From Lophium mytilinum (lineage: Eukaryota), in NCBI GenBank assembly GCA_010093605.1, contig MU004199.1, positions 992,001-1,056,000 on the forward strand: a stretch of 64,000 nucleotides of DNA. The letters run 5' to 3'. The number at the start of each line of letters is the position of its first letter. Position 1 is the stretch's first letter. Shown piece after piece: positions 27,780 to 63,344 of the stretch. The notes beneath the pieces are model-generated. The model worked only from the letters and a program-made list of their open reading frames with translations. It made no database searches and had not been told where the DNA came from. Both the position numbers and the translations under genes were made by a program.

Positions 27780-28338
27780 GAAGAGGAAGTGTTAAGGAGA
27801 TGGAGGCGTTCTTGTTATCGGAAGGGCGACTTTTGTGCTTTTGGTAGTTCAGATACCCAGATTTTATTATGTCGGTTTACTGGCATACGCACGTGCGAAA
27901 TGTAATGCTGTCGGGGGTGCCTCGGTGACTTCTGAGTGGTCGACTTGTGATGAGTTTTTGAAGTCCTGGTGGAATCCAGGCGCTGGAAACGCGTTCGCGA
28001 TCTGCGTCTGGTTCGCGCTCTTCAATCCACGACATTCCTACTAACTTCTTATGAACATACAGGGTCCTCCCACCGACGACGAATACCTGTCAAAATTTTC
28101 TAGCTTGTTGTCTGATAGCCGTTATGGAGCCTCAAACATAGCCTTTGACCTTTCTAGGATAGGTGGAGCCAGTCATACTGCGTCAAGCGCCTAGAAAAGA
28201 TGGCAGTAGAGACACGCTTTTTGGACGTTCAGGGATGTCGACGCTTTCCGTGTAAAGAAGAGTGTTGGAAGTAAGCGCCTATTTACGTACCGAATGTTTT
28301 ATACTTGCTTTCAATCGGGAGTAACAAGGGCTTAATGA

Positions 28339-28470
28339 GGAGTAATGGGAGTAATGGGAGTAATGGGAGTAATGGGAGTAATGGGAGTAATGGGAGTAAT
28401 GGGAGTAATGGGAGTAATGGGAGTAATGGGAGTAATGGGAGTAATGGGAGTAATGGGAGTAATGGGAGTA
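28339..28470 (+). repeat. Perfect 9-bp minisatellite (GGAGTAATG), about 14.5 copies
   Basis: Directly visible tandem array just 3' of the LrgB-like gene. Confidence 0.98.
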
Positions 28471-28539: not shown

Positions 28540-30484
28540 TTATCCCTCCACCCCGGCCAGCCTCGCCACAACTCTAACGACTACAGGCACGGATGTCAAC
28601 GCTACAGTGACCGTCCCGAACAAGCTCATTGACAGGCTCGAGAACGCTGCCGCGCGTGGATCGGACGCGAGAAGTAGCGCGGTCGCCATGGCGGACGAGT
28701 TCGCACCGAGCGTCACGCCTCTCGTGATGTAATCATCTACCCACATACGTATTAGCTCTTCTCCTGTCCTTTCGACACGACCAATGCTCATCATTTACCA
28801 TCAGGTATCCTCATGATCCTCAGCATTGCCGGCCCAAGCAAGACACCTAGGATGCCCGATACTATACACAGCACCGCGACTAAGCTGAGGTCTCCGCCTA
28901 GGTTTGCGGTTGCGGGTTGTGCGAGGGCGAGGGTGAGGCTGCGCGAGGCGAAGGAGAGAGAGCGGGTGGGGGCAATGCCGAGGGCATGGCAGAGGGGTGG
29001 GTAGCTGAAGAGGGAGGCGAGGGCGAGGAGGGTATTAGGAAGGAGGATGGGGAGGAACTGTATTCGGGGCGTTAGGACAGGTTCTGCTCACAATGGAAGA
29101 AAGAAGATAATTAAGATTTGAAGAGCGAAGGACTGAAAAAAGTCTCACGTGTCTGCGAAGTTCGTGCCGGTATTGGAACATTGGTAGCGCGAGTGCAACA
29201 ATACTGACATCGAGTATCGTGCCGAAGAGATCACCAGCGCCAGGGCGCGGAAGATTAGCCTTGCCCTGCCATAGTTGCGTGTACTTCGTGCCTGTTTTGT
29301 AGGCATGCAGCGCGTGCGTCAAACTATCGCCACGGATAAGCGCGAAGATCCAAATACCGAGGACAGTAATAAGAGATGAGACTAAGACGGGATGGAGGAA
29401 ACGGCGCCATTTAGCTGGTAGCTTCAAGGCGATGAAGTAGGCGATGATATTGAAGGAGAGCTGAATTGGCATCGCGTAGCTGGTACTATAATAGATTGGA
29501 ACGCCTATAAAGACAAAGATGGCGATATAGGATAGGGTGTCTAGATGTACATTGATGAAGGCGGCCCATTTTTGGGCGCGTGTTAGTGGGACTGGATCCT
29601 GACGAATTGCAGTGCTAGACTCCTGGGGTAGCATTGGAGTTGCTTCCGGAGGCCCTCCTGTTCCTGTGATCTGACTAGGGTCTTGAGCTCGAAGAGGCGC
29701 CTGGAGTCCTTCGATCGGTGATGACAGGGATAGTACAGATGGAGCTACCGAAGGAGGCTCCGTGGAAGGCTCTGAGGGGCTCCGGCTATGTGTAAGTGGT
29801 ATGTCCTCTCCGCGTGTACCTAGTTCTTCAGCTCTTTCTGTCATTGCTCGTTTCGAAGTCCCGAGAATGTATTGGAGGCCTCGAACTAAGTAGGCTGTGA
29901 ACGCTGTCATGGCGAAGTAGCCGATCACTGGAGAAAGACTCAGTATTTGTTGAACTCCCGGGTTAGGGATACTGACCAAACACTCCTATGATCTTCGCTA
30001 TCTCAATGCCTCCAATTGGGGAACTTAAAGGCAACAATATGAATGAAGGAGAGAAAAGAATATTAATGTAGCGGAGAGCGAAACCTCCCTAAGACGAATA
30101 AGCAAGCATAACGCAGTCACTATATGAGAGGAAGCATACTGGCACATCTACTAAATTCACGACGCGTTTGATCTTTCTATCCCCCAACAGTGACTCGCAG
30201 ATAATCAAGGCAAAGAAGAGTATTATCATACACGCGACTGATGCGGGAAAGGAGACGGAACTTAGACCGATAAGGGATTCTACTCCAAAACATGCAAGAA
30301 GAACAATAAGAACACCAGCTGGCACGTAGATCCAGGCTGCGATCATTCGATGCCCTGATGAACGAGCAACCTGTTGACCAATAGGAAATTAGATTCTACT
30401 TATGAATGAAAGAAGGCATTACGGTACCAGCAGGGCTGCTGTCGCAGCATCTTTAACTACACTTGGTTGTCTAGTAGCTGGCAT
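28540..30484 (-). CDS. LrgA/LrgB-like (PLGG1-type) multi-pass membrane protein, multi-exon
   Basis: N-terminal LrgA-like SFPASVACMIILFFAL and INILFSPSFILLP. LrgB-like VALALPMFQYR, LAFASRSLTLALA, RGVTLGANSSAMATALL. Confidence 0.8.
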
Positions 30485-30707
30485 TTGATTAGGTCAACTT
30501 ATGTATTGTTGGAGTCATGGTGCAAGCATATTGCAGAAGTGAAGAGGCCTTGGCCGAGGTCGGGCATCTCGTAAAGTAAGATGACTAAGGCGCGTATCTA
30601 ACCTGAACAAAGCGGGAGAGGCCAAGTATCTCCATCCAACATTCTACACCCCTGACTTCCTCCCCTCCCTCACACCCTCTGTATATCGCTACAGCCTTCC
30701 GTCCACC

Positions 30708-32372
30708 ATGGCGCTCGCCACGAAGAACGAGTCGCAGAAAATCTTCGAGAAATTGAAGCTCAAGCCCGCAAACAAGGTCAGTTTGCCCCTCCACCGCCCA
30801 CCGCATCCCTTTCCGCACGCTGCTGATACCTTGGCTTCTAGATATGTTTCGACTGCGGCGCAAAGAACCCGACATGGTCGTCGGTGCCCTTCGGCATCTA
30901 CCTATGCCTCGACTGCTCGGCAAACCACAGGAACATGGGCGTGCACATCTCGTTTGTGCGGTCAACGAATCTCGACAGTACGTGGAGTGAGATCATACAC
31001 AGAGCAATGGCTTACTCGACCACACAGTCTGGCAATGGGATCAGCTACGGATAATGAAAGTTGGCGGCAATGAGTCGGCCACCAAATATTTCCAAACACA
31101 CGGCGGTTCCGCCGCGCTGAATAGCAAAGATCCCAAGACGAAATACACTTCCAACGCCGCTACCAAATACAAGGAGGAGCTGACGAGAAGATGTGCTGCT
31201 GATGCACGACAGTATGTCTCAGTCACTTTTGGCATATCAACTTCTAACATCCCCTAGATTCCCTGACGAAGTTGTAATAACAGAAGCCACCGACACCCCT
31301 AGCGGTACCAACACCCCCGCGGACAACGAAGATGACTTCTTTTCTTCTTGGGATAAGCCCGCCATCAAACGACCCTCCAACCCGCCCTCACGCACCGGTA
31401 CGCCCCTGAGCGGCTCTCGCACTGGCACTCCCTTCCTCAACGCCCCCGCGAACGGAAACGGCACCGCGCGCCCCAAATCTCCCCTCACCGCCTCATCGGA
31501 TGCCACCCCACGCGCCATTCCCGCCTCCGCGGTCCGCAAAACAACCGCAGGCGCCGCCCCCCGTAAAGCCAATATCCTAGGTGCCAAGAAGACAAAGCTG
31601 GGTGCTAAGAAGCTGACACCCGCGGATGGGGCGCTGGATTTCGAGGCTGCGGAGCGCAAAGCACGCGAAGAGGCCGAACGCATCGAGAAACTGGGATACG
31701 ACCCGGAAGCCGAGAAAGCAGAAGAAGCGGCTAAAGCTGCTAAAGGGAAAGCAGCGGCCGAGAAGGAACTACCTGGCATCGTGAGCCCGACCCCGGTCGC
31801 GCCCGCACGTGGAGGCTTTGGCTCGACGGGCAAGCCGGAGCGCAGCAGTGCTGAGATGGAACGGTTGGGGATGGGTATGGGACGGTTGGGCTTCGGGCAG
31901 GTTGGTGGCGCGAAGCCAGCGCCAGCAGCGGCGAAGAAGATGGGTGGGTTTGGGAGCACGAGCCGTTCTGCTGAGGGTACGATATGACTTTTTCACTTGG
32001 CTGTCTTTAAGAGTATGCTAACAAACTGCAGATGACGCCGAGAAATACGCCCGTCAAAAATTTGGCACGCAGAAATCTATCTCCTCGGACGAGTTCTTCG
32101 GCCGTGCCGCGTACGACCCCTCTACTCAAGCCGCCGCCAAGGCACACCTCTCGAACTTCGAAGGCGCCACCGCCATCTCCTCGAACGCTTACTTCGGCCG
32201 TCCAGAAGACGATGTACCGGAAGACGATTATGGTGATCTGGAGGGCGCGGCCAAGGATTTCGTAAGGAAGTTTGGTGTTACGGCAGGTGATGATTTGGAG
32301 AATCTGACGAGTTTGCTCGGCGAGGGGGCAACGAGGCTGCAAGGGGCTGTCCGGAATTATCTGAATAGTTAG
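30708..32372 (+). CDS. GLO3: ADP-ribosylation factor GAP (Glo3/ArfGAP2-3), multi-exon
   Basis: [59 protein letters not shown], Glo3 motif [11 protein letters not shown]...AISSNAYFG. Confidence 0.95.
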
Positions 32373-32739
32373 GTGGCGAGGCGGTGAAAACTTGTGGCAA
32401 ATGAATAGTAAGCTTAGGAATAAGAAGTCGGTAGACGAAGTCTGGAGGCTTGAGGTCGACCAGAGGGGTTAGGCATGGCATACATGGCGCTCGGGTGCGA
32501 AGGTCATGGATGACGAGCAATGAATGGCTAGTAATTGGTGAAATAGGTATTTATTGTATTAGAGGCTCGGGAAAGCATGCAGCACACGGCAATTCAAAAT
32601 CTACAAACTATCTCTTACTCTCTTTCAAGCTTTCAATTTTTTTATAAGGTGCCCCGGTGTCTTTGGTATCCAGTATATCACGAGCACGCCCCTGCACTCC
32701 TCTTTCCATCATCATCGCACTCCAGCAGTCTGCTTACGT

Positions 32740-35700
32740 CAGTCTGGTCACATGCCCATACCTGACCTTCCTTTCCGACGAGTACAAAAACCTCGCTCGC
32801 TCTTTTTCTAGTCTTCCTTTCTTCATGGTCTCGCAAGGAGACGGGGGTGGATCAGAAGGATAATTTCTGCTGGTTCATGGAGTTGGATCAACTGCAGATG
32901 TGCATATCATCATGTCCTGGTTCTGGGAAGATTAGATTTCAAAATTAGGCACTCATGCCTGCTATGGGAGTGTAGGTGGTGTTAGAACCAGGGATACGAC
33001 ATGTCTCATGGAGTTGGGGTCGTGCTTTGGGCTGAAGTGGGTGTTTCTGGGCCGCGAAGGATTGGCTTGGTGATCAGCATCATTTGTCCGCGATTGTGAA
33101 GGTCGTGATGAAGGGACGATACGTGAATTCAATACACGAATGACTCGCTAACCGCTTTGAGATCAGTCAGTGGGCTAGCACGTGCACCACGTGCCCCCTG
33201 CTGGGAGGTAGGTATAAAATATCCCGCTCAGTTCTCTCTGTCTTCCTTTCTTCGTGGTCTTGCAAGGGGACGGGGTGGGATCAAAAGTATCAAAGGTTCA
33301 ACTTCATGGAATCGGATCAACACTTCGAGTTATTGGCTCACTCCATGGAGTCGGACCCCCCGGATTGATGAGCTTGATTACGTCACAGTGGTGGGAAGAT
33401 GGTAGTCCAAATACCCCATGGTGAGCCTTTATGCTGGGTCTGGAGTTGGCCTGAAGTTGGTGTCGTGGTTAACCTGAATGAGTTTCGAGGATTAGCATCA
33501 TCTATGCTCACTTATGAGGGTCGTGGTGAAGAGACTAGGGGTGAACCTGGCTTAAGAACGAATTAATAGCCGTTTCTAGGATTCATCATGTGGTAAGCAC
33601 GTGCAACACGTGGCCCCTGCTGGAGGGTAGGTATAAAATCTCTCGCCTACTCCTGTCCATCTTTCTTTTTTCATGGTCTTGCAAGGAGACAGAGGTGGAT
33701 AAGAAACGCCCGGGAGAAAATTCCATGTTGTGGAGGTTGGGAACAGTGTTTGTTCCATTCAAAACAAAACGATTCCAAGAGCAATAGAGATGGATTGGGC
33801 GGTGTGCTGAGGGGTATATAACGATTGATGCTCGCCATCATTTCTTTGCGATATCGCAGATTAGCGAAAGAAGGGGGAAGGATGAGACTTGTTTTGTCTA
33901 TCAGAGGAATCGCCACCGCTGTGCGTTCGAAGGCTGATTTCGTGGTCAGCACGTGCACCACGTGCCCCTTACCGAGGACGAGGTATAAAATCTCCCGCTC
34001 ACTCCTCAAGAACCGGCTTTCCTTCTTCACAGTCTTGCAAGGAGACGGGGGTGGGATTAAAACCGACACAATAGCATACTATGGGCGAGAGCTACAAAAC
34101 CATGGCTAACCCGAGTCAAATGTGCTGGAGGGCGGGATTCTTTCTCTCATGGAGGGCTAGAGAGTAGAATCAAAAAGTGGATCGTGATGAAGTGATGAGC
34201 GAGAGCTGCAAAACGGATCTACGACACCGCTCATGCGGTGGGGACTGGGACGATCAATCGGAGTCGAAATTCGGAGCGATAGGAGTGGTCGAGGTGTGAA
34301 AAACGGGGTTCAGAAAGCACGATGGAGGTGGATTGGTCGGTGTTCCGGGGGCTTGGTGGTGGTTGATGCTTACCATCATTCTTAGACAGTTCCGAAGAAC
34401 GAAGGAGAAGAAAGAGTGAGTGCGGCCTTACCGCCTAGGAAATTAAGCCGAGAAAACCTCCCTCTGACCTTGGATTTAGGTGCGTCCACGTGTTTCACGT
34501 GGCCCATAACTCGGTCCAGGTATAAAATCTTCCGCTCGGTCCTCGAAACTTAGTTTTCTTCATCAAGGTTTCGCAAGGAGACGGGGATGGATCAAAAATC
34601 ACTAGGGATGTTGGAGGGCGGAGATCAAAGAGTTAAGAAGTCTGAAATCATGGGAGAGTGTGAGTGTGTTCAAAATATCTATGGAACTCGATGTATGGGA
34701 GAGAGCGTGGTGTACAAACTCTTTCTCCATTCTGGCCGATGGAGTCGTGTCCGGCGGAGAGAGGGGGTCTATTCGAGTGCGGTGATGATAGAAACCTTGC
34801 CGGTGTGTTGATTGTGTTTAAGAATGGGATGGGTTCAAGACAGCGTTGCGGAAGGATGGTGATGTGCGATAGAATAGATGGTGGAGATTTAGAAACTCAA
34901 TAATATAAGTAGTGCATGTTTACTTCTAGGGAGGTAGCTTCTGGAGCTCTATAAGATGAATGCTGTATGCTCTATAGCTACCTCCTTTCCTCTTCCCACT
35001 CAATCTCCAGCCTCTATCCTCCTAACAACCTCATCACGCACGAACCACGTGAACACCCCTAAACTAACATATAAAAACATCCCCTATCTCCCTTTCTCTT
35101 CCTTTCTTCAGTCTAGTCTCACACAGAGAAAGCGACGGAGCAAACCCCCCAGGGCCTTCCGGTCATGAATTGCGTGCATTAACCCTACATTCCGCATTAC
35201 GAATGGCGGTGCCAGGAACTCGGGAGCGCAACTCTTCTTCCTCCTCGACCTATGGACCGTGGGTGGTATTACCTGTGGAAATATAACGACGGCATGAGGT
35301 CGGTCGGTGGCTGGTACTCTAGTGTACTTGAATTAGGTTGATTTTCATCGAGTTTGGTTGGTGGTGGAGTGCACTGTCATAGATAAGTGGCTATTGATAG
35401 GATGGGGGTAGAGTAGTGTTGAGTATGGATCGGGCGGTGACAATGTTGGACATTTCAATAGGGGTTCAATTGGAATAGCTTTATGCCGTCGCGTTAGAGC
35501 GAACCTTCGAGGTCTCTCGGGATCATACCTTGCTAGAAGATCTTCCTTCAGGCTTGTCAACACGCAGTCCAGCTTACCATGTACAATCTTCCCTTCTCTC
35601 ACCGCCCTCTCTAATCACGTTATACACACGTGCCCGACGTGCTCCCCCTCCCACATCTTCTATATAAACCCCCCTCCCCACCCCTCAATCTTCCTTCCTC

Positions 35701-36310
35701 AAGTTCTCGCAAGAAGGCAGGGGAGGAGTCAACACACGCGGATCCCTTCCCATGGGGATCAACACCAAAAGCCAATTCTCCCCATGCTGCGGTTGGAGCT
35801 CCGGGGTTTCAAAGTATCCAAAGAAGCCTTGAATGGGAGCGGAGGGGGACTGCAAAAGCTTACTCCGCCGCCCGAAATGGAGTTGGTGGTGTGGGGTTGC
35901 CTGGGCTGGCTGGTGCTCGCCGTCGATGGTTGATGGTGGAGTCTGTCAAAGCCGTGGAGTTGTGGCGTGTGTTAGGTGGAGGTGTTGTTGTGGATCTATA
36001 GGGTGGGAGAGAGGGAGTTAGTATCGGTTGCGCGGTGAAGACGTTGACGCTTCGATGATCGTAGGGTCTTCCCATCCCACTCCTATCAACACACCTCATC
36101 CCTCCCAGTAGCGTCTGGTGACTTTCCACCCCTTATCTCCGTTCCCCCATCCCCTGTCTCCCCATCAGCAGCCAAGCCATGAGCCAGCGCCTGATTACAC
36201 GTGACGCCCCCCCTCCGTCGAGTATAAAACATCCCATCCATCTTCCTCCTCTTCTTCTTTCATTCCATCAAGGCCTCGAATGGAGATAGGAGCGGTTCAA
36301 AAATTGGCAC
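32740..36310 (+). other. Array of eight diverged promoter-plus-hairpin units (candidate ncRNA gene cluster)
   Basis: TATA-type boxes at 32783 (TACAAAA), 33213, 33632, 33984, 34521, 35070, 35661 and 36223. Each is preceded by CACGTG-type box(es) and followed by a pyrimidine tract and a GTCTYGCAAGGRGAC-type hairpin. The repetition is directly visible; function is inferred. Confidence 0.8.
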
Positions 36311-37017
36311 ACTCTCACATAATGGGGTATATACCTTCCAACATCATAATCGATGCTGTCTGGGAGGACTTGGGGGTCGGCGAAATCGGCCGGCGAGACC
36401 CGCGATGGGAGTGTCTGGGTGGAAATTGAACATGGCAGAAAGAGAAAGTATGGGGTTTCGGCGGCGTTCAAACTGCGCCAGAGAGCTCGGTGATGGATTT
36501 GAATTTGCAGGGCGAGACGCTAGCTTGTTGTTCATCGTTTATGGTTGGTGGTGGTGGCGGCTGTAGATCAAGCTTGATGCTTGCTAGTATAAGGTAAAGG
36601 AGACAGTGAAGAAACTTAGAGTGAGGGAATGACAGTTAGCTTTGCTTGAAAGCGTTGAAGATCATGACTGAGACAATATTTAGACGTGATCCAGCAATGA
36701 GTAGACAAATGCAAGATCCAATCCATTTTAAGATGTCTCTAGATGCAAATACGCGTTTCAACCCACCCCAAATGGTTTCCAGAGCTTTTTCTGTCCCTCT
36801 TGTTTTGATAAGAAAGGTGATAAGAAGTCTTCGTCAATACATGCTCAACGCCCAAGCCGAAATCGATACCTAACATGTGAACAGAGACGCCAAACGCCAC
36901 ATATCCCCTGCTTACAAGTCCTTTTTGTGCCAGGTTTTCAAAATTGCAGCCCGCGCTAGTATGTACGAGTTAGGGAGCTCGACTGCACGCTCCACTGCTC
37001 TGTGATAGTGAAATCGC

Positions 37018-38576
37018 CTACGATGCTGCAGAAGTCTCGGCGCTCTTGCTTGAGCTTGCCACGGTCTCTTCGGACTCGGATGGCGTGCCGGCGTTGATCG
37101 CACGGAAGCCGTTGGGGAAGATGTTTACCGCGCCTGCTTGGACGAGCTATCATATACATCAGTCCCCAGGTGTCTCAAAGCTAGAGTATGACTAAACTTA
37201 CCGCACGACTCAAATCATCCAGCAAGTCCTCAACATCCTCAATGCCAACACACAGCCGGATAATATCCTCAGGCAGCGCCCTCTCGGCCCTCGTCTTCGC
37301 ATCAATGCTGGCATGGCTCATGCGGCACGGCATGCTGATCAAGCTGTTCACACATCCGAAACTCACACTAATCGCCCACAGCTTCGCGCTCTCCACAATT
37401 CGCTCGCTGACATTGACGTCGCCGGTCTCGAAAGACAAGACTGCGCCCGCGCCCCGCGCCATGCTCCAGTGCAAGTCGTACTGGGGGTGTGACCGCAGGC
37501 CGGGATAGCGTACTTTGAAGCCGTGGGACTCGAGGAAGACTGCAATGCGCTGCGCGTTCGATTGTTGCTTCTCCATACGTACGCCGAGGGTCTTTACTCC
37601 GCGCAGAAGCAGCCAGGAGTCGAATGGGGAGAGCCCGACGCCGGACGCGTTGATAGTGAAGTAGAGTTTCTCGCCCAATGCAGGATCGTTCACGGCGAGC
37701 ACACCGGCCATCAGGTCGTGGTGGCCAGAGAGGTACTTGGTGCCGCTCTCGTAGACGATATCCGCGCCTAGATCAAGAGGGTTCTGTAGGAGTGGCGAGA
37801 GCATAGTATTGTCCACGGCCACTATGGCTGAAGGATTGGCGGCGTGTGTTATGCTTGATACTCGAGGGATATCGGCGATTTTGATGAGAGGGTTTGTGGG
37901 GCTTTCGAGGAGGACCATGGCGGTCTTGGGCGAGAGGACTTTGCGGACGGCCTCTGGATCGGTGGTGTCGACATGGTGGACAATGATGCCACCATTGGTC
38001 GCGAGGTACTTCAGAAGACGGTTTGTGCCGCCGTAGAGATCATCTCCAGTCACGACCTCATCGCCCGGGCGAAGTAGGCGGGTTATCACGTCTAGAGCGC
38101 CCATTCCGGAGGAGACGACGAGAGCGCGCGAGGCGTTCATGATCTTGGCCAGGTGCCGTTCGAGATGGGTGCGTGTGGGATTGCCGGAGCGTGTGTAGTC
38201 ATACTCTCCGCCGCCGCCAGTTGCTGATTCTTGCTTGAAGGTTGCGGACTGTGGTGTTGAGTTAGCATCGTTCATTGCGACAGAACGTCCTCGGCTTCTA
38301 CGGAGAGCTTCCGCGTGTGACCAAGGCCTCTAAACGGCCTTCGAGTTGAGTATGTACCTGGTATATGGGCACGCTGGACGCATTGTACTGGTCGGTGCTC
38401 TCGGTGTAGACCAATTCGGTCGCCAGAGCGTATTTCCTGCCATTTCGAGGACTCGAAGGCGCTGGGCTGGGCGGTAGGTCGTGTCCGTCGAGATCCAGGC
38501 CGCGGAAGGCCTTCCCTACGCCAGTGACCTTGTCCTTGAAGCTCTCCGGGGGTGGAGACGAGGATCCGGATGACAT
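37018..38576 (-). CDS. STR3: Cystathionine beta-lyase, 3 exons
   Basis: SSVPIYQSATFKQ, YDYTRSGNPTR, DDLYGGT, ESPTNP, VDNT, PLP-lysine motif ESGTKYLSGHHD, IRLCVGIED. Confidence 0.93.
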
Positions 38577-39470
38577 GGCGGGCGAAGGTATGGGGTATCG
38601 TTAGGGGACGGATGGAGGGGCAATTTCTTTGTGAGGCGGCGGGAGAAGAGGTTTATGGAGGGCCGGCCGGGATTGCGGGCGGAAGGAGGAAGATATAGGA
38701 GTTTCTTGGGGAGTCCGGGGGAAGGATGGACAGGTCAGATGTGGGCTACGGATGCTGCAGGTACATGGCTAGAAGGCGTAACTTTAGTCGTGGTGAACTT
38801 GGCCTGGAGTCACCGCTCCGATGGCGCAATCGCTGCGCGAGCTGGCGGCACAAACTGAGGCCAACATCACCAAGAACACCCCGTGTGCCCCGAGCGTCAC
38901 CAGCTCCAAGTATCTTTCTTGCAAGCGAAACCATAGTTGAATTTACTGCGAGGAGCAAACACAGATACCCAACTTCATGAGTCTTATTTCTACTGACTGG
39001 TGTGTTTTGAGCCTCATCCAACTTGCGAATTACACACCCGTCTGGGACCGGCACTCGTAAAATTTTATATGCCGTCAGAAAAAGTAACAATTAAAAACAT
39101 CCGAATGTACAGGCGCCTACTGAAGCAAATTCGGAATCCTCAGTATGCTCATTCCAACATGGATTACATCACGGCACGATACCTCAAAGACTGAGAAAAA
39201 CCCCAAATAGAATTTTGCTACCTAGAGCCAGGGGTATTGCGAGCCAAAACCATCCACGAGCAGAGAATGCGTTCCTGCGTGCTCCCCGTGCTGTTTGTGC
39301 CCAAACGCCAGGCCGATGAACCCATAACCTCGTGAAGCTCCATGAGTATAGGACATAAACGAGAACCGGGACGGAAAAGGCAGACCCAAAGAAGAAGAAG
39401 AAGTAGAAGCGGCACCAATGTTACGCTCATCCCCATCCAATACGTCCTCATATGTGCAAAAAGAGACCCC

Positions 39471-41730
39471 CTATCGCGGCACAATAGCGGGGAATAGCTT
39501 GCGTTCCCGGAGGTTGATGTTGAATTCGAAGATGCCGTCTTCTGTGCCGGCATACAGCTTGCGTCCATCTTGGCTCATGGCGAGCCCGGCGGTCCTCACG
39601 CCGTTGTGTGGGTCACTGCGAGGATCGTGCGCGCCAGCCGTCTGCCGTCGTGGTCCCTGTCGCATCATAGCGATTTCATAATCGCTGCCTGGGTGGTCTC
39701 GCAGGCTTCTGATGCGATCCCGCGCGGCTTGCAGTTGGCGTATGCGGTGCGCTTGGCTTGGCTCCGCTGGTGCTCGTGGCGGCAGTGATTCGGGCAGTGC
39801 GCTTCGCGCCATGGCAGCCTCTATCGTCCGCCACGGGTCGCTTGATGACGACTCTGAGGATTCAGCGCGCCTTGCATGTGGCGGTATTGGGTTTGGTGAC
39901 CGTGATGTTGGTGTGCCAGTCAGGCTATCAGTGCTGCCGTTGTTGGCCGCGCTGGAACGACCACCCGAGAGAACAACCGACGCTTGTCGCCGTGGTTGAT
40001 ATGAGGCCCGTTCTGGATCTAGGGCTCGCTCGGCTCGCTCTCGCAGCAGACTACGCACGCGAACATAGTCTGTGAAGTCCCCTCTGCCGTGTGACGATGT
40101 ATTCTGGCCTGCGCTAGTTCGCTCGCTGCGCTCGCTGGAGGAATTGTTGAAGGCCGTCCTGAACAGTCCTAGATCGCTAGTATTCGGGTAGCGGATGCTG
40201 CGTGGTGTTCCAGTTTCGCGGGGTCCGTCCCTCTGTCGCGTCATGATCGCATCCAGAACTTGGCGTTCATCCGGGGTCAGTCCGTGAGGGTCATTGTCAG
40301 ATTCCACCACTCCAAGCTGGCGATGGAGCCTTCGTCGGTCCGCTGCTGCTTCGAGGTAGTCCGTCGCATAGTTCGATGCTGCCGTGTGGACTTCTGGGTC
40401 CAAAGCGCGGCGGTATCTACGAATGAAATCCGCCTCGTCACTTATATCACGTAGTTCCGATTGGGTCTGCTGTGCTTCTCGAGGCATCTCAATGTCGAAG
40501 TCTGCGATGTCGATTTTCTCCAAATCATCGTCCATTGGATCCAAGGCGAGTACCTGCTTGACGCTCAGTCCGCTGCGAATGTCCGCGACGCATACTCTGG
40601 CTTGATCCTCGCTCCATACCAGGAGATCCCAGGGTTGAGGGGAGAAGAGCATGGTTCGCACGGCACCGGGGCCAGCCGTGGAGTCGGGTCGGGACGACTT
40701 AACGACCTGAACGACTGCATCCTCGGCATAATCGCACTCTTTTAGTAACTCAGTATCGAAGACGGTTATGTACCCGCATTCAGACCCCACTGCGCAGAGA
40801 GCCCCAGAGGGTGACCAGGCTGTGGTGAAGTATCCTGCGACGACAGAGCCCGGTGGCACATATAACTGCGCCTCTGCAAAGTTGGACCATTGTACAGGCA
40901 GAGATTGGGGCCGACCTTCGGGTGTTTTCATCATGCTCGGTCGCGGTGTCTTCAAGCGTTCGAAAAAGAAGACCTGCTGATAGTCACCGACAGCAATCAG
41001 GAGCTGTCCATCCGGAGATATGGTTGCATGGTTCATCGCAAACGGCAGCTTCAACTCAGCGACCTCTACGCTTTGCGTTAAAGAGTAGATGCGCACCGTT
41101 TTGTCGTTGCTGGTGAGAACTGCAACCACTTCATCCTCCTCTTCTGCTTCCCCGTGCAGCTTGTGTATTGATATTGAATTGACAATCTCCGAACCAATCC
41201 TCTCGACCCGAACAGAACTCGCCGAGCGTAAAGTAGGCGGCGGCGGTATAGTGGTGCGATTAGGAAGATCCAGGGGCAACAGGGCATCGACGTCGGTGGG
41301 GTTGGGCGGAGGGTAGGCTTCTACCTTGATGGCGGCAAAACAGCCATCTTCGGCTCCTCCCACGCAGACCCAGCCATATCCGGCAGCGGTACACCTGGCA
41401 TCGAAGGTAAGTGTAGCTATAAGGGTTTGAGTCTTGGTGACGGTGTTGAGGCAGTAGACATATTGGCCGTTTGCGTAGTAGATGAGGTCCTGCTCCGGGG
41501 AGCTGATGAAGTGCCGCAGTTGGTAGTGTCTGGGCGCGGTCAGTACAATCGCGGGAGTGCAGGTGAGAGGCAAACTGACGAGAGGGGTATAGAAAGCGGA
41601 TAGAAGGTCTTGGAGGGCAGGACGAAGGTGTCAGTGTCGCGGCACCTGCAGAGGTTAGCATGCGTCATTTGAGCTATGTCCTCGGGCGCAGAGGCTGGGA
41701 TGCAACATACAGAAAGTCGTCAACGGCCAT
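39471..41730 (-). CDS. DUF2415-type WD40-like beta-propeller protein; two short 5' exons
   Basis: HYQLRHFIS, IGSEIVNSISI, SNDKTVRIYSL, FAMNHATISPDG, GAVRTMLFSPQPWDLLVWSED, YAGTEDGIFEF. ATG exon MAVDDFL followed by a GTATGT donor. Confidence 0.8.
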
Positions 41731-42266
41731 CCTGTGTATCAGTTCGGGGTGCACAGCATGGTCTGAAGGGCGCAGAGGATGGAGGGGCCTGGGGCAACAG
41801 TGGTATGCGCGCGGCGTCAAAGTACGTCACAGCGCTGAGGCACGGCGGAGAGTGAAATGGCAGAATCGAATTGCGCGGAGCAGCGTGCTCGACGGGAAGT
41901 AGCTATATCAGACGAGGACTGTAAGGCTTGTGTTTGGTGGTGGAGCGGGCTTTGTACGAGGTCGGCTTTGTGGACTGGAGGTGACTGCCCTCCGTCAGCC
42001 CTCTTGCGAGCTCTCCATTTGCTTCACGCCATATGCCGATCACGACTTCACTGCACGTGAGCAGAGGCAAGCTATACGAGAGCCGTAGCGCTGACCACGA
42101 TGGATGCCTCCGCGCAAACGCCGGCTTGACTGCAGCAAACACCCGGACGAGGGCATCACGAGCCGTGTTCGCAGCCGTGGTCCCTCTCTCCCGCACTTCG
42201 GTAGCTCTTCGACTTCGGCAACTCGGCCTGCACCTCTGCACGTGACCTCAATGCACAGACCACGCA

Positions 42267-42284
42267 TCTAGAAATTTCGTTTCC
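42267..42284 (+). promoter_or_regulatory. Heat-shock-element-like motif upstream of SSC1
   Basis: tctaGAAatTTCgtttcc (GAAnnTTC) about 150 bp before the Hsp70 ATG. Short motif, supported mainly by context. Confidence 0.35.
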
Positions 42285-42429
42285 ATCGCCATCCATCGCC
42301 TACATAGAGCTCTTCCGAGTCGCCATCCAAACTTCATCCACCACACTCCCCCATCAATTCTCCCCCTCCTGTCTCCCCCTGTTGCTCAGAGTCCACCCTC
42401 AGCGGCGTCTGCAATTTTCTACCCACATC

Positions 42430-44571
42430 ATGCTGTCGTCCAGGATATCAAGATCGGTGAGTTTCTTGCCCCTAGAGCTTGAGTGTATTTCTCTGACCTC
42501 ATGCCATCAGTTTTTGCCCCGGGCCACATCCGCAGCACGATGGACGCCTGCCGTCAGGAAGCCTTTCGGCTCAGCTTTCATCAGAGGATACGCTGATGGC
42601 GGTGAGGAGAAGGTCAAGGGCTCGGTCATTGGTATTGACTTGGGCACCACCAACTCCGCCGTTGCCGTAATGGAGGGCAAGGTGCCGCGCATCATCGAGA
42701 ACTCGGAAGGTAAAATTGCTTCATCACCAATTTTTAAACGGCCGTTGCTGACTTGATGCTTTGCAGGTACGCGCACAACACCATCCGTCGTCGGTTTCAC
42801 AAAGGAGGGCGAGCGTCTCGTTGGTATCGCTGCAAAGCGACAAGCTGTTGTGAACCCGGAGAACACCCTCTTCGCCACTAAGCGTCTCATCGGCCGGAAA
42901 TTCACCGATGCTGAGGTGCAGCGCGATATCAAGGAGGTCCCGTACAAGATTGTCCAGCACTCCAACGGTGACGCATGGCTCGAGGCACAGGGACAGAAGT
43001 ACTCGCCGTCTCAGATTGGCGGCTTCGTCTTGGGCAAAATGAAGGAGACCGCTGAAGCCTACCTGGGCAAGAACATCAAGAACGCCGTCGTCACTGTCCC
43101 CGCCTACTTCAACGACTCGCAGCGTCAAGCCACCAAGGATGCTGGTCAGATCTCAGGTCTGAACGTTCTCCGTGTGGTCAACGAGCCCACTGCGGCTGCG
43201 CTCGCCTACGGTCTTGATAAGTCCACCGACAGCGTCATTGCCGTCTACGATCTTGGAGGAGGTACTTTCGATATCTCCATCCTCGAGATTCAGAACGGCG
43301 TCTTCGAGGTCAAGTCCACCAACGGTGACACCCATCTCGGTGGTGAGGACTTCGACATCACCCTCGTCCGCCACCTCGTCCAGCAATTCAAGAAGGAGCA
43401 AGGCATCGATCTGTCCGGTGACCGCATGGCCATCCAGAGAATCCGTGAGGCTGCTGAGAAGGCGAAGATCGAGCTGTCCTCGTCGCTCCAGACCGACATC
43501 AACCTGCCTTTCATCACCGCCGATGCCTCCGGACCCAAGCACATCAACTCCAAGATGTCCCGGTCACAACTTGAGCAGCTAGTTGACCCCCTGATCTCCA
43601 AGACCGTCGAGCCAGTGCGCAAGGCTCTGAAGGATGCCAACCTCAAGGCTACTGATATCCAAGAGGTCATCCTCGTCGGCGGTATGACTCGTATGCCCAA
43701 GGTTACCGAGTCAGTGAAGAGCATTTTCGGCCGCGACCCCGCCAAGTCTGTCAACCCCGACGAGGCTGTTGCCATTGGTGCCGCTATCCAGGGTGCCGTC
43801 CTCTCCGGTGAGGTCACTGACCTCCTCCTTCTCGATGTCACCCCTCTCTCCCTGGGTATCGAGACTCTCGGAGGTGTCTTTACCCGCCTCATCAACCGCA
43901 ACACCACCATCCCCACCAAGAAGTCGCAAGTCTTCTCCACCGCCGCTGACTTCCAGAGCGCCGTCGAGATCAAGGTCTACCAGGGTGAGCGTGAGCTTGT
44001 CCGTGACAACAAGCTATTGGGCAACTTCCAGCTTGTTGGTATTCCCCCAGCGCACCGTGGTGTCCCCCAAATTGAGGTCACCTTCGACATCGATGCCGAC
44101 TCTATCGTGCACGTGCACGCCAAGGACAAGTCCACCGACAAGGACCAGTCCATCACCATTGCCTCTGGATCCGGTCTCTCCGAGTCTGAAATCGACAACA
44201 TGGTCAGCGACGCCGAGCGTTACCAGGAGTCCGACAAGGAGCGCAAGAACGCCATTGAGGCCGCCAACCGCGCTGACAGCGTTTTGAACGACACTGAGAA
44301 GGCCCTCAAGGAGTTCGAGGACCGCCTAGACAAGGCCGAGGCTGAGAAGATCCGTGAAAAGATTGCCAACCTCCGCGAGTTCGTAACCAAGAGCCAGTCT
44401 GGCGAGGGCTCTGCCACCGCCGCCGAGCTCAAGGAGAAGACCGATGAGGTCCAAACCGCCAGCTTGACCCTGTTTGACCAGATGCACAAGGCTCGCGCGT
44501 CAGACTCGAACAACAGCTCTGGCGAGCAAGGCCAGGCTGGTGAGAGCTCCGAGGGCGAGAAGAAGCCATAG
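42430..44571 (+). CDS. SSC1: Mitochondrial Hsp70 (DnaK-type), 2 introns near the 5' end
   Basis: Arg/Ser-rich presequence MLSSRISRS..., [51 protein letters not shown]. No EEVD or HDEL end. Confidence 0.97.
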
Positions 44572-53721: not shown

Positions 53722-56700
53722 TCCTCTTCTTTTAGATCTAATTTACTATTAAATTATATTTATAATAGTACGTTGCGCTTACTACTTTATACTATGCGCT
53801 ATTAGTATATTAGGCTATTAGCTTCTTTAGAAGCTTTAAAGCTTCTAGAGGCATATAATACTATAAAAGGTGCATTAGTAGGTAGTAATATTATAGTAAT
53901 ATACCTAAGAGGGGTTTAGAATTCTTTAGAGGCCTGCTACTATATTAGTAGGGGGGATAATAAAGGCATTAGAATATTTAATAGCTTAATAGTAAGGAAG
54001 AATTAAAAGAGATTATAAAGTATTTATAATAGAGGGAATTATAAGGTAATATAAATATTAGTATACTAGCGCGCATTAGGTTCTAATATATAATTAGAGC
54101 TATAATAGCTAATAATAGGCTTATTAGAGATCTTATAAAGTCCCTTATAATCTAGTAAAAAGCTTATAATCTTATATAGGTTTAAGAAGCTATTAGTATA
54201 TTATAGAGCAGTAAGTAGTAATCTAAAAGTAATAGATTTAAGAATCTAGAGTATATATAAGGCCTTCTTAATGCTCTTATACTTTTTCTTCTATACTTAA
54301 CTTTCTTCTTTAAGGTTTAAGCTTTTTTTAGCTTTAAAGGTTTATTAAAGACTCTTATAGCTTCTCTTTTTATTACTATTATCTTTCTTTATTAATTTCT
54401 TTATTAGAACTCTCTCTCTCTTAGCTTCTAGGCTGCTTCTTCTTACTCTAAGTTAGTATTATAATATTACTTAATACCTAGCTAGGTTCTATAGCCTCTA
54501 GCTTACTCTATAGAAGAGGTAGAGATAATAAAGGTAATAATTCTTTAGACCCTAGCTATAGTTATAAGGTTCTACGCTTTTATAAGTACTTAGGTATCTT
54601 AGCTTATAAAGCCTTATAGGCCTATAGTAAGTTTCTAATAATAGTTTAGCTTTTTCTCTTAATAAAGCTAATAAGATCTAGTTACTATTATACTTATATT
54701 AATTATTAACCTTCTAATAGTCTAGAGGTTCTATAATNNNNNNNNNNTATTAAATTAGCTAGGTATATATATAGGTAGATAGGTAGGTAGAAAAAAGTAC
54801 TTCTAGAAACTTCTAGAAGCTAGAAGGGTAGCTACTTTATATTATAGTATAATAGTAGATTGTAAGAGAAGACCTAATATTAGTATATATAGATAAAGTA
54901 GCTATAAGAGAGAGAGAAGGGCGCGGAGCGCCGGCTAAAAGGTAGGCAAGGCTAGCGCTAAGCCTAGTTATATAATAGTAATTATATACTAGAGGGCATA
55001 TAACGCTGTTATATATATTAGAAATATATTATAATAGAAGTTACATTATAGCTATAATAATAGCTTTTAATAATTCTATTTTAATTTCTTAAGCCTTCTA
55101 ATACTATACTATATCTTTTAATTATTTAAACTATACTAAATACCCTCTAAAGTTTAAAGGTAGTAGTAGAGCTTAGAGAAATATACTACTTTAAGAGTTT
55201 CTTAGTAATATTAGAAATAATAAACTAATTTTAAATAAGAACTATAGCTATACTTTATGCTTTATAGGGCTTCTTAAATAGTATTTAGGCTTAAGGGTAG
55301 ATTATAGTAAGAATTCTAGGGCTTCTTCTACCTTTAGGGCTTGCAACTACTACCTAAGAATATTCTTAGAAGGCTGTTAGTTTAGTAAATATATTTAAGC
55401 TTATAATCTAGATAGTTCTTCTCTCTACTAAGAATTCTATATAGAATATTATTAGTAGGGTAGTAAGAGGACTTATTTATTCTAAGGTAAGTTTAGCTTT
55501 ACTTTTAGAGTATTTTAGAACTTAGCTAATACCTATTATAGAAGAATAGACTTTAATAGCTTATTAAAAGACTACTAGGGCTTATATTTAATAAGGTTGC
55601 TATAATATTACTAAGTTTATATCTTCTCTTTATAACTAAGAATCCCTTAAAAACCTAGCTAAGAATGTAGTATACTTAGCCTTAGCTATATAGCTACTAA
55701 TAGAATTAATTTAAAGAAAGACTACTATACTACTATATAATCTAGGTATTTCTTATACTTTTAAATCTCTAATAGCTTAACGTTATCTATAGAGCTCTAG
55801 TAGTGCTTCTACTTAGGCTTCTAGTTTAAGATCTAGCTTCTAGTAATTATCTATAGCTGTATTAGATTTAGAAAATATAGCTACTTTAGGTTCTAGTACT
55901 TAAGGTCTAAGGTAATACTCTCTAACCTCTTCTACTTAGCCTTTAACTTCTTTAACTTCTTTAACCTCTTATTATTCTTCTTTAGGTTCTCTATAGCGCT
56001 CTTAAGAGCCTACTTCTAATATACTATTAAGCCGCCGCTTATTCTAGTTATCTATTAGTAATAATAATAACTCTACTAAAGAGACCCCTTTAAACTCTAC
56101 TTAGTATTAGATAGGCTTTCTAAATACTATTCTCTAGAAGAATAGGGCTAGTAAGTATAGCTAAAATATATTAACTTAGAGCGCGCCTTTAAAATAGCCT
56201 TAGAAGAATAATAATAGCTATTCTAGTAGTAGTAGTAGCTATAGGAGTTCTAGTAGAAGAAGTTCTAGTAGTAGAATAGCTACCTAGAAGGACTAAGAGT
56301 GTATTAGCTTAGCTAGTATTAATAGAAAAGTATTAATTTTCCCTCCCCTTCTAGATATAAGAAGGGTTAAGTATAATAGAAGTATAAGCTTAGCTTAGTT
56401 AATCTCTAATATAGGTTCTTAAATTTATTATCTTTTTAATTCTCTAAAGATAAAATATAGCTAAATAAGTAATAATAAAGAATTAAACGCTTAAATCTAA
56501 ATTAATAAAGGAAATCTAGGTAATAAATATATAGAGTTCTTCTAATACTCTATTAGCTTAAAATAGAAGCGCTATTTAAGCTCTCTTGCGCTTTCTTCTG
56601 CGCAACTCTATATTAAGAGCTTAGGTGGGTTATATTATAGGTATATTAAAATTACTATCTAAATCTAACTTATAATTACTACTAGTATTCTTATTATCTT

Positions 56701-59700
56701 TAATATCTATTATGCTAGTATTACTGCTAGAGAAGCTCTCTAATTAAATATTAGAGTTAGCATTCTTATCTAAGGACTTATTATTTATGCGCATTTTAGT
56801 ATTCTTAGCTCTTAAGTTAATTTCTTTATTCTATAGCTCTATAGTATTATTAGTTTAAATAATAGTATTACCCCTTAGCCGCATAATAATAGTATCCCTA
56901 TTATACTTATTATTATCTTAGTATATAGCATTAGGTAATTAGGTAGTAGTATTTATACTCTTAGGTGTTCTATTACTATCTTAAGCTATTTCTAATAGTT
57001 TTCTATTATTAGTATCTATAGCTAGTACTAATGCATTATTAGGTTATTCTATAGGTGCTGCGTAATTACTAGTTCCCTGCGGAATATTAAGCTTATCTTA
57101 ACTTATTTTTAGCTTATATATATAAACTTTCTAATAGGTATTTATAGTAGTCTTACCTGTATCTTTATATTATATAACTATAAAGCTAGTAACCTATGCT
57201 AGTATAATAGTTAATTAACCCTTCTTAGGTCTCTTTTTCTTAGTAGCCTGTTAGTCTCTCTTAAAAACTCTCTCTTTAAAATCTCTTAGTATTTAATGTA
57301 GCTTTAGTTTAGGCAGTTTCTAAGTATTCTTCTTCTCTTTCTAGAAGAGCTCCGCGCCCTTATGCTGCTATTTTAATTAATACTTAGTAATCTTCTAATT
57401 CTATTCTACTTTAGAAATTATAGTAAACTTAAACTATAGCTTTCTATTAGTATTATCTATATCTAATATATCCGCAATAGTATTATTACTAGGTTTAACT
57501 TCTTCTTAATATACAGCACGCTCTTTATTAGTATTATTAAAATCCTTTTAGTTTTAAAGTACTTAGTTATCTTCTAATATATTATTAGAATATTCTAAGC
57601 TATATTTAGGGTCTTTTTAGTTCTAAAACTTTATATAAGCATTAATGCGTGTATTTACTAACCTATTACTATAAATAAGGTTCTTTAATACTTAATTAGT
57701 AGGCGTTTAAAGCGTATAAGTACTAAGAGAATAAGTAGTAATAATCTTAAATAGACTAAACTATTTTACTCTAAATTTTCTCTTAACCTTATTTTAAAGG
57801 AGTACCTAGGAACTAATCTTCTATTAAGTAACTAGATACTTCTTAGATAGAGGTTGTAGATTCTATAGGCCTGCTATAATTACTTTCTTTAGTAGCTAAT
57901 CTTCTACTAGTACATGCATATATTAAACTTTCCTAATGCAGGCTAAATAATACTCTAATTTAGCTTCTTTATCTATAGTCTTATTAAGAGCTAGTACTAA
58001 AGTATTATTAGGTACTTAAGGATGTCTACTATATATAAGGTAGTAGGAAGTATAGCTATAGAAGGTATTCTAAGTATATATTATATATACTATAGCCGGC
58101 AACTAGATATTTTATATAGCTATATCTTAATTAATTATTAGCTTTATAAGAATATTTTCTAAGACTCTATTAAGCCTCTCTACCTTACTATTTACCTAAG
58201 AGTAATATAGCGTTATAATATTATAGTAAGTCTTAATAAGCTTTTATAGTACTATAATAACTTTAGAAAGAAAGTTTAAACTATTATTAAAAGTAAACGC
58301 TGCTAGGGGTCTATACTAGTAGTAGATTCTTTTATAGATAAATATTACTATAGTCTTAGCTTAAGTATTAGAAAGCGCTATAGCTTTAGGCTAACCTATA
58401 GCGTAATTAATAGTAGTAATAATCTAGTAATTCCTATAGATTAATTATAGCAATCTGCTAATTAAATTAATGCCCTATTTATTAAATAGATCTTAATCTT
58501 TAACCTAATAAAATATTAGTTTATAAATAATCTTTTCCTTCTATACTAGCTAGCATAAGGTATACTTATAAGCGTATTTATTAGTATTATAACTTATTAT
58601 TAGCTACTAGCTATATACTTATAGGGCCTTCTGCATACTATAGTATATAAAGTAGCCTAGCTAGTAGGTTCTATTAAGAACCTATTAATAATAGGAAGGT
58701 GCAATATATAGTATAGTATTCTTAAGAGTATATAGATCTAAATTACTATTAGGTTTATAAAAGTAATAGTATAGTTCTTCTTTTAGAATTATAAAGTTCT
58801 AATATAGGGATAGATAGATTCTTTAGTAGTAAAGCTAGTGTTATTTTAATTTAGCCTTTAATAGCTATTTAGAGAGAGTAGGCTTAAGGCCTATTATAAG
58901 GAACTTTTTTAAATCTTTAATATACTCTATATTAGAATCTTTATACTTAAAGAGGGCTATAAGGCGTTCTTAGGTAAAATTAGGGCGCCTACTAATTATA
59001 TTTAGTACTATTATAAGGGCTTCTAAGTAATACTATATTATAGGGTTATACTACTAGAAATCCTTAATCTATTAAGTAAGCCTTAGTAAGGCTTTCTTAG
59101 TAGTTTATAGGTATTATAATAAGTAGTAATTAATTATAATTATTAATTCTTTCTCTTAGATATAGTATTACTAAATTCTAAGTACTTTCTTAATTACTAG
59201 AAGTTCTTTTTTATAAACTAGGTAGTTTAATTTAGCTTTATTAAGCTTCTAACTATTAAACGCAATAGGGTGCTACTTACCGTCTTCTTTTTATTAGAGA
59301 AGAACTATTCTAATAGTAAAATTAGAAGCGTCTATTTTAATCTAAAAGAGCTTTAACTAGTTAATAAGAGTAAGTATAGGGCGTTTAATAAGCTTTTACT
59401 TAAGAAAGTTAAAAGTAATTTAATAGCTAATATTCTATATAATAGCTTAGTACTTTTTCTTTTATATTATAGTGTTGCTTTCCTTTAGAAGCTTATAGAG
59501 AGGTGCTAATATATAGGTAAAGTTTTTAATAAACTTTTAATAGTATATTACTAGTCTAATAAACTATTAGACCTTATAGATATTAGTAGAAATAGGCTAA
59601 TACTAAATAGCGTCTAGTTTATTAGTTATTAGTTTTACGGTTCCGTAAGAAACTATATAGCTATAGAACTTAATAGTTTCTTAAGTAATTAAGTACTTAT

Positions 59701-62700: not shown

Positions 62701-63344
62701 TTAATAACTATAATATAATTAAATTAAAGAGTAAGAAAAGGGTGCTAAAATAGTAGTATTAAGTTTCTTTCTTAAATACTTTTTAATATCCTATTAGAGA
62801 GGAAGAATCCTTAAAAGGACTTCTCCGCCTTCTTCTTATAATTAACTTATAAGAATTTCTAATTACTATATAATTATTAGGCTCTATTAAGCTATAATAT
62901 TATTCTTCTTACTATTCTACTATTAATCTTACTTTAGTAGCTAATAGAACGCGTAGTTAGTTACATAGAAGTATTAAAAGGAATAGAAAAATCCTATAGT
63001 AATATTCTAGCTAAGAGCTCTTTAGACCTATACTATTTAATTTTTATAAGAATATTTATAATAGGCGGTTATACTATAATACTAGCCTAATGCTAATTAG
63101 GGGCTATTATTAATAGTTATTATTAATTACTAATTAGGTTAATTTTTAGAAACTATTAATACGGCTTAGTATTATTATAATAATCTAAAAATTCTACTAA
63201 TTATAGAAGCTAATATCTTCTATTATTACTAAGGGTTAATTATAAGAATATAGCCTTAGCTAGCTCTATACTATTAAGTTTAAGAACCTAATAGCTCTCT
63301 AAGAAGGCCTTAAAGGCGGCTAGAACTATAACTAAGCTACTAGA

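Follow-up and report, generated by a model that had tools for sequence, protein, structure and literature searches.

What is encoded by eight head-to-tail promoter units that lie between two convergent genes of Lophium mytilinum, a wood-inhabiting fungus of the Dothideomycetes? The units sit in a 4.4-kb interval of a 64-kb window of this genome (contig MU004199.1, positions 992,001 to 1,056,000; all coordinates below count from the first base of that window), where genes are otherwise spaced compactly and the 4.4-kb gap is large by comparison. An initial annotation, made from the sequence alone, had read the interval as a cluster of individually promoted, co-regulated short non-coding transcripts, each with a constant leader and a variable body. 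We followed up this proposal with comparisons drawn from within the 64-kb window and from protein databases, a single sequencing run and published work.

The explanation that we favour, at a probability of roughly 55%, is that the interval contains eight short (~350-590 bp) plus-strand genes, a tandemly duplicated family confined to its lineage and transcribed by RNA polymerase II (Pol II), with a standard promoter and a conserved leader, no conserved open reading frame (ORF) or fold, and leaky termination, in which only the promoter and leader are held constant. The family is probably restricted to its lineage. Each unit would consist of one or two CACGTG boxes, a TATA element 25 nucleotides (nt) downstream and a pyrimidine-rich start region, with transcription most likely beginning 27-30 nt past the TATA at a conserved (A/G)TCTTCCTTTCTTC. 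The 5' end of the RNA would be a conserved leader of ~45 nt able to form a 5-bp hairpin, followed by a G-rich body that appears to have diverged almost to saturation and to retain few islands, among them ATGGRR-type motifs and, in units 1-4, a purine run near the 3' end. Termination would be leaky, some RNAs entering the next unit and units 7-8 being read towards the 3' end of a convergent cystathionine beta-lyase gene. We infer that each promoter fires, where exactly its transcripts start and that Pol II is the enzyme used.

Architecture and conservation of the array

All eight units lie head to tail on the plus strand, and the distances from one TATA element to the next are 430, 419, 352, 537, 549, 591 and 562 bp. 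The units and the intron-like ends of two of them are listed below.

32749..33178, plus strand: unit 1, with a degenerate CACATG at 32749 and TACAAAA at 32783; its leader (32811-32857) is the best-preserved copy
33123-33178, plus strand: intron-like 3' end of the unit-1 body (GTGAAT...CTAAC...AG), directly before the unit-2 boxes
33179..33597, plus strand: unit 2, with CACGTG at 33179 and 33188, TATAAAAT at 33213 and leader 33240-33286, then the body
33598..33949, plus strand: unit 3, with CACGTG at 33598 and 33607, TATAAAAT at 33632 and leader 33659-33705; a 17-nt purine run closes the body
33950..34486, plus strand: unit 4, with CACGTG at 33950 and 33959, TATAAAAT at 33984 and leader 34015-34061; a 16-nt purine run abuts the intron
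34416..34479, plus strand: intron at the 3' end of unit 4, 64 nt, GT..AG, with a branch-like CTGAC 16 nt 5' of the acceptor
34487..35045, plus strand: unit 5, with CACGTG at 34487 and 34496, TATAAAAT at 34521 and leader 34551-34597, then the body
35046..35626, plus strand: unit 6, with a single CACGTG at 35046, 24 nt upstream of TATAAAAA at 35070
35627..36197, plus strand: unit 7, with CACGTG at 35627, GACGTG at 35636, TATATAAA at 35661 and leader 35695-35733
36198..36650, plus strand: unit 8, with CACGTG at 36198, TATAAAAC at 36223 and leader 36264-36302, then the body, whose 3' end is approximate

No ninth core follows unit 8. The eight-unit feature is real and far beyond chance. The proximal box stands 25 nt upstream of the TATA in six units (in one of them as GACGTG) and 24 nt upstream in unit 6, with unit 1 degenerate, and a second CACGTG lies exactly 9 nt further upstream in units 2, 3, 4, 5 and 7. 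The pattern CACGTG-N19-TATAAAA, with at most one mismatch allowed, matched five times in the window, every time on the plus strand within the array, versus 0.11 matches expected; a count of five was reached in 0 of 100 shuffles. Outside the array, neither strand of the window carries another [CG]ACGTG 15-30 nt from a TATA[AT]A, and 11 of the 28 CACGTG sites in the window fall within 33179-36198. Downstream of the TATA, the 38 nt from +8 to +45 are 68-87% pyrimidine in all eight units, versus 50% window-wide, and the tract terminates in TTCA or TTCG at about +40 to +45. Seven copies of the leader have 69-100% identity to the unit-1 copy over 39 nt, while the leader of unit 6 is the most diverged of the eight, with a TCTC/GAGA hairpin and another loop, and is still alignable.

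These measurements reproduced the positions that the initial annotation had given for the boxes and TATA elements, its second boxes at 9 nt and its degenerate unit 1, and the measured spacing of 352-591 bp agrees with the same-strand spacing of 350-590 bp that it had reported. The pyrimidine tract that it described is also present, with an end slightly further downstream than the 35-40 nt proposed.

A search of metagenomes for the twin-box pattern CACGTG-N3-CACGTG-N19-TATAAAA returned three loci, two of them identical in sequence, and none with the leader or an array. The identical pair, on metagenome contigs L001 (1173-1213, minus strand) and L003 (598-638, minus strand), contains CACGTGACTCACGTGAGG...TATAAAA, where the twin-box/TATA geometry is imposed by the search pattern and comes without leader and without array. 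This stretch is probably the promoter of an unrelated eukaryote, outside the array family.

To compare promoters and bodies, the eight units were aligned with MAFFT and mean pairwise identity over all 28 pairs was taken in 25-column bins. Across the core (boxes, TATA, tract and leader) the five bins gave 0.55, 0.51, 0.45, 0.71 and 0.58, whereas well-occupied bins of the body gave 0.28-0.41, about the level of unrelated sequence. BLASTN between units recovered the cores of units 1-5 only (74-87% identity over 38-116 nt), plus one 34-nt motif of units 6 and 8, and found no copy of the core outside the array in the window. The leader is the best-kept part, even in unit 1 with its decayed boxes and TATA. 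The closest pair, units 1 and 2, has 70% identity over 386 aligned nt. Conservation is thus concentrated in promoter and leader, and the picture of a constant leader with a variable body stands. From the alignment we infer that this unequal conservation reflects selection, or gene conversion, acting on promoter and leader.

Within the bodies, several units have islands of likeness in the form of ATGGRR-type motifs, at about +93, +177 and +220 counted from the TATA. The heptamer ATGGGAG occurs five times on the plus strand of the array, in units 1, 5 (twice), 7 and 8, and AUGGRR- and UCAA-type short motifs are enriched 3- to 6-fold on the plus strand. Two sub-types can be distinguished, since units 1-4 have in common a 3' module in which a CATCAT motif is joined by a purine run and an intron-like end, while units 6-8 carry ~100 nt of pyrimidine-rich sequence ahead of the boxes. 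A TGGTTGGTGGTGGAGT-type motif is also common to units 6, 7 and 8 (35334-35367, 35927-35942 and 36521-36557; about +265 to +320 from the TATA) and sets them apart from units 1-5 as a sub-type. Elsewhere, in an intergenic gap at 28333-28470 of the window, a 9-nt microsatellite, (TAATGGGAG) x 15.2 with 99% matches, contains the same ATGGGAG heptamer as the array islands; elsewhere the heptamer occurs only five times on both strands of the window. Its presence in microsatellite and array may be a coincidence or may mark a common binding motif.

The geometry of the units can be set beside a start-site map of Aspergillus nidulans. In that map, CACGTG peaks at about -70 and TATA at about -45 across 4637 tight start sites, and the sense strand is pyrimidine-rich from -50 to +25 of the start (PMC4046813). 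The 25-nt offset between box and TATA in the array equals the offset between these two peaks, and the pyrimidine richness of the start region is matched by the array cores. The array differs in repeating the promoter eight times head to tail, in doubling the box at 9 nt in five units, and in that its promoters would drive short RNAs without an ORF instead of protein genes. The comparison supports the view that the units carry the standard Pol II promoter layout of filamentous ascomycetes, as the initial annotation had read them (PMC4046813). Its implication of a special geometry did not survive, this being common promoter architecture in filamentous ascomycetes (PMC4046813). Because A. nidulans promoters generally show the 25-nt offset, the offset is to be expected and is not exotic; and since the geometry is ordinary, CACGTG alone would be no pointer to phosphate or sulfur control.

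Transcription and coding potential

Evidence on transcription comes from a single public sequencing run (X1), whose label as RNA is a guess and whose contigs carry no information on strand, true starts, ends or levels. Its contigs were mapped to 28600-44000, with bin depths that are contig means and give no ranking of expression. Missing from these contigs are 14 introns (46-109 nt, bordered by GT..AG or CT..AC) of the four neighbouring genes, and for that reason the contigs derive from spliced RNA. The run contains 79% of the sampled words of 32600-36600, and depth was present in 30 of 30 bins of the stretch, at 2.5-22 in the bins of units 1-6.

Two contigs bear on where transcripts begin and end. 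A 2905-nt contig begins with base 35690; counted from the first T of the unit-7 TATA this lies 29 nt downstream, and it coincides exactly with the conserved CTTCCTTCC. Unspliced over the 1457 nt from 35690 through units 7-8 to 37146, the contig then enters the beta-lyase gene and lacks that gene's introns, which are skipped in the minus sense. Its start fits the start predicted for unit 7, a contig end being weak evidence of an RNA end, and its course also fits read-through from units 7-8 towards the convergent gene. In a second contig, of depth 3.4, the intron at 34416-34479 has been removed, and the contig extends at least 88 nt past the acceptor over the boxes and TATA of unit 5. Because the intron removed is a plus-strand GT..AG intron, the plus strand is transcribed and spliced here, and because the spliced contig crosses the unit-5 promoter, some of the RNA is read-through from unit 4.

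We then considered whether the units encode proteins. When the three plus-strand frames of each unit were translated, two were open through the cores of units 2 and 3 with similar peptides, and in units 1, 4, 5 and 8 shifts or stops interrupt the same two. No 3-periodicity was seen in the variable columns (codon-phase counts [11,7,6] and [7,11,8]), and many of the indels that separate units 1 and 2 have lengths not divisible by three. The protein searches took unspliced ORFs. Of 27 ATG-ORFs with 35 or more amino acids, 20 (35-93 amino acids long) were checked for exact matches in a collection of 15 billion proteins, which contained none of them. A search of 1.84 billion representatives with a 93-amino-acid ORF made of the unit-3 end and the unit-4 core gave no match at E <= 0.001; for a 123-amino-acid ORF of unit 7, a word-based search gave 44 candidates with common words, none of which scored. 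An ATG is also present downstream of the leader in each unit, and the peptides that begin at +87 to +99 are 5-67 amino acids long and mutually unrelated; in units 1, 3, 5 and 8 the leader already contains an ATG. The sequence comparisons therefore lead us to conclude that no protein is conserved across the array, though unconserved micro-peptides may be made.

Three further coding candidates were tried and rejected. Precursors of a-factor-like lipopeptide pheromones were sought through C-x-x-x-stop ends, of which there are seven in six frames, none recurring across units; an upstream Met exists for only one of them, CPRL, which is not aliphatic as a CAAX end. Minus-strand ORFs beginning MM(A/V/L)SI in units 1-4 look alike by eye in a way that follows nucleotide identity, and stops or shifts break them in other units. 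A plus-strand frame through the leader likewise shows a likeness by eye that follows nucleotide identity, with stops or shifts in other units.

Known RNA families gave no match either: Rfam returned nothing at E <= 1 on either strand of 30000-39000. RNAalifold predicted a 5-bp hairpin in the leader (GTCTY / GCAAG / GAGAC). Since there is no conserved reading frame and no detectable global structure, the RNAs are most likely non-coding, with at most unconserved micro-ORFs. A spliced-leader function was dropped, there being no conserved GT after the leader, and so was a C/D small nucleolar RNA (snoRNA), GTGATGA-like motifs occurring in units 1, 2 and 4 but with no consistent CTGA partner by eye.

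Arrays of small nuclear RNA (snRNA) and spliced-leader RNA genes are tandem, individually promoted and normally homogeneous. The L. mytilinum array resembles them in its head-to-tail order, in the fixed-geometry promoter of each unit and in the conserved 5' segment, but it lacks an Rfam match and a conserved donor after the leader, and its bodies are 300-500 nt long, unstructured and mutually unrelated. A second comparison is with the non-coding snoRNA host-gene clusters of Aspergillus and Neurospora, in which, according to the A. nidulans study, the intronic snoRNAs are conserved and detectable by Rfam (PMC4046813). Like these clusters, the array gives a spliced intergenic fungal transcript with no reconstructable ORF (PMC4046813). 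Unlike them, it has no Rfam match, conserves promoter and leader, and has one intron seen.

Several claims of the initial annotation can be judged at this point. The lack of a conserved frame holds, given the broken frames, the missing periodicity and the non-triplet indels, and the Rfam search that it had suggested bore out its statement that no described RNA family was recognised. A transcript cluster is borne out in so far as contigs derived from spliced RNA cover the interval. Strictly individual promotion fares less well: a start is hinted at for unit 7 only, and the spliced contig that passes from unit 4 over the unit-5 promoter weighs against it. Overall, the annotation is partly supported: its promoter reading stands, as do a constant leader with a variable body and the lack of any match to known RNA families. 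Strict independence of the units looks less likely given read-through from unit 4 into unit 5, and individual firing of every unit, co-regulation, a bHLH factor of the Pho4 or Cbf1 type and a function for the RNAs are proposals.

Alternative explanations

Several points weigh against a family of short non-coding genes. An ATG is kept at +87 to +99 from the TATA in eight of eight units, as small-peptide genes would show. The leader hairpin has compensatory changes in none of ten pairs, the changes being one-sided and mostly to G-U. By minimum free energy, the eight predicted transcripts folded no better than shuffles (25 each), with plus-strand z scores from -2.3 to +1.5 and seven of eight within 1.6 standard deviations; only unit 1 on the plus strand was low (-2.3), and the others, on both strands, gave -1.0 to +1.9. 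With no compensatory pairs and shuffle-like folding, there is no positive evidence of a functional RNA structure. The thin cover of units 1-6 (depths 2.5-22) could come from genomic DNA, and at least part of the signal is read-through, one contig crossing the unit-5 promoter from unit 4. Core conservation could stem from gene conversion instead of selection. Finally, the family could be dispersed, as a mobile element would be, or absent from relatives, the search for copies having covered the 64-kb window.

The conserved ATG is the starting point for a reading of the units as small-peptide (micro-ORF) genes, in which the leader would be a 5' untranslated region and the ATG at about +93 would start a fast-evolving peptide of 5-67 amino acids. 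The rough chance of such an ATG in all eight units is 1.4e-5 for an 11-nt window, a window picked post hoc; its context is YCATGG or YCATGR in five of eight, and 3-nt indels in the leader preserve a frame. We nevertheless regard this reading as unlikely: the eight peptides have no mutual similarity and one has only 5 residues, four units (1, 3, 5 and 8) offer an earlier leader ATG, no start resembles a signal peptide by eye and no CAAX end is consistent, none of 20 ORFs was in the protein collection and the two ORFs searched had no relatives. ATGGRR also recurs at about +177 and +220 in different frames, which suggests a nucleotide motif and not a start codon. A low probability also attaches to the view that the units are transcribed relics of an old tandem amplification of a promoter and 5' region, functionless, with cores kept alike through gene conversion or lower mutability. 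Bodies at background divergence, a unit-1 promoter that has already decayed, low bin depths over units 1-6 and the missing structure or coding signal are all as such relics would have them. Yet boxes, TATA, 25-nt spacing and leader outlast the bodies in all 28 pairs, where under neutral decay six or seven TATA boxes, spacing included, would be lost at the same rate as the bodies, and a 4.4-kb gap between convergent genes is large for so compact a window. It is very improbable that a single long gene with many exons, whether coding or of the host-gene kind, starts upstream of unit 1 and has the supposed promoters as internal exons. A 3' splice site does lie directly ahead of the boxes in units 1-4, one of which is used, and two plus-strand frames are open through the unit-2 core, where CACGTG-N3-CACGTG would read C-x-x-C or H-V-x-H-V. 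Against such a gene, the frames are broken in four of eight cores and show no codon periodicity, the core-spanning 93-amino-acid ORF has no relatives among 1.84 billion representatives, the contig over units 7-8 is unspliced for 1457 nt and starts after the TATA, and the interval holds no Rfam snoRNAs.

The array might also be a tandem, non-autonomous long terminal repeat (LTR) retroelement akin to TRIMs (terminal-repeat retrotransposons in miniature). On this account the core, extended ~65 nt upstream, would be a terminal repeat of ~130-150 bp (TGA...boxes...TATA...TTCA), the leader would be the primer-binding region and the purine run before TGA the polypurine tract. TRIMs are shorter than 1 kb, with terminal repeats of 100-250 bp and an inner domain that runs from primer-binding site (PBS) to polypurine tract (PPT) (PMC6934838), and they often occur in tandem with the layout TDRx_I(x-1), where the last element of the array is a terminal repeat (PMC6934838). 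Unit size, repeat length and tandem arrangement are comparable (PMC6934838); purine runs of 16-17 nt stand directly before TGAG, ~65 nt ahead of the boxes, in units 3 and 4 and in interrupted form in units 1 and 2; units 1 and 3 have a TGG after a tract whose last bases are CA; and the units have no ORF and are transcribed. A retroelement is all the same quite improbable. A tRNA-type PBS must begin with TGG, which stands behind the tract in only three of eight units (1-3), the conserved part being the adjoining GTCTYGCAAGGAGAC, and the purine-run/TG junction is absent from units 5-7. The array closes with a body and no terminal repeat after unit 8, so it departs from TDRx_I(x-1). R plus U5 would span only ~17 nt, and the purine run/GTGAGT junction serves as a real 5' splice site in the contig. 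The array has no signature of repeat-induced point mutation (RIP), though sequence 20 kb away is strongly RIP-like, and the 64 kb contains no other copy, even with transition-degenerate matching. The array is like TRIM arrays in its units of less than 1 kb, its promoter-bearing repeat of 100-250 bp, the purine-rich ends of the would-be inner domain in some units, its lack of an ORF and its transcription (PMC6934838), and unlike them in having no apparent conservation of a tRNA-type PBS, no closing repeat, no RIP signature and no second locus in the window.

The RIP comparison rests on the window itself. An AT-rich block at 54000-64000 (GC 25-31%, 27% overall) is strongly RIP-like, with TpA/ApT of 1.76 and (CpA+TpG)/(ApC+GpT) of 0.21, while the rest of the window, array included, has values of about 0.7 and 1.2. 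RIP indices of the array equal those of its flanks (TpA/ApT 0.66 versus 1.76 in the AT-rich block). A transition-degenerate search of that block found no RIP-mutated leaders, and the window has no tRNA genes with which the leader could be compared. RIP was also considered as the cause of body divergence and set aside, array indices being the same as in the flanks. With flank-like RIP indices and no other copy in the window, the array does not look like a recently active repeat by its composition.

Neighbouring genes and significance

The array is flanked by two convergent protein genes.

30656..32711, plus strand: left neighbour, an ArfGAP-domain gene identified by a domain match and labelled GLO3 in the initial annotation, with three GT..AG introns spliced out in contigs
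37181..38329, minus strand: right neighbour, main exon of a cystathionine beta-lyase gene (Pfam Cys_Met_Meta_PP, E 1.4e-134)

In the stretch 32198-32749, high-depth bins of the ArfGAP gene stop at 32711, ~40 nt short of the decayed unit-1 boxes, and transcription of unit 1, which has the best-kept leader, may come by read-through from this gene. On the other side, the main exon of the beta-lyase gene has 100% identity, over 99% of the query, to an NCBI protein named for Lophium mytilinum, and 99% identity to a Mytilinidion resinicola protein. A contig covering 35690-38248 joins units 7-8 to this gene, and convergent transcripts overlap or abut near 36700-37180; there could be natural antisense at the beta-lyase 3' end.

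Which part of the units would be functional is a matter for conjecture. Our guess assigns the functional role to transcription itself or to the 5' leader, with a CACGTG-binding factor in control. A more specific proposal is a co-regulated battery of long non-coding RNAs under one CACGTG-binding basic helix-loop-helix (bHLH) factor, in which promoter and leader hairpin would be the working module and the bodies would carry short repeated motifs; it might act as a protein sponge or factor sink, or through convergent transcription into the beta-lyase 3' end, linking an E-box signal to sulfur amino-acid metabolism. We hold this proposal to be rather unlikely.

In kind, the locus would be a tandem array of individually promoted non-coding RNA genes, and we did not find such a fungal array described. 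A search-level look at the literature on CACGTG/TATA tandem arrays in fungi, on this species and on long non-coding RNAs of Dothideomycetes turned up no such array. To our knowledge, little has been established about functional loci for long non-coding RNA in filamentous fungi. Should the array prove to be a dispersed retroelement or a decaying duplication, it would be ordinary genome history. As a compact example of a CACGTG/TATA core promoter it could be used to dissect that architecture. At this locus one promoter and leader is repeated eight times by nature, joined to bodies that are unrelated to one another, and if it is conserved in relatives, it would offer a ready test of whether selection acts on transcription as such, on the first ~45 nt or on the body.

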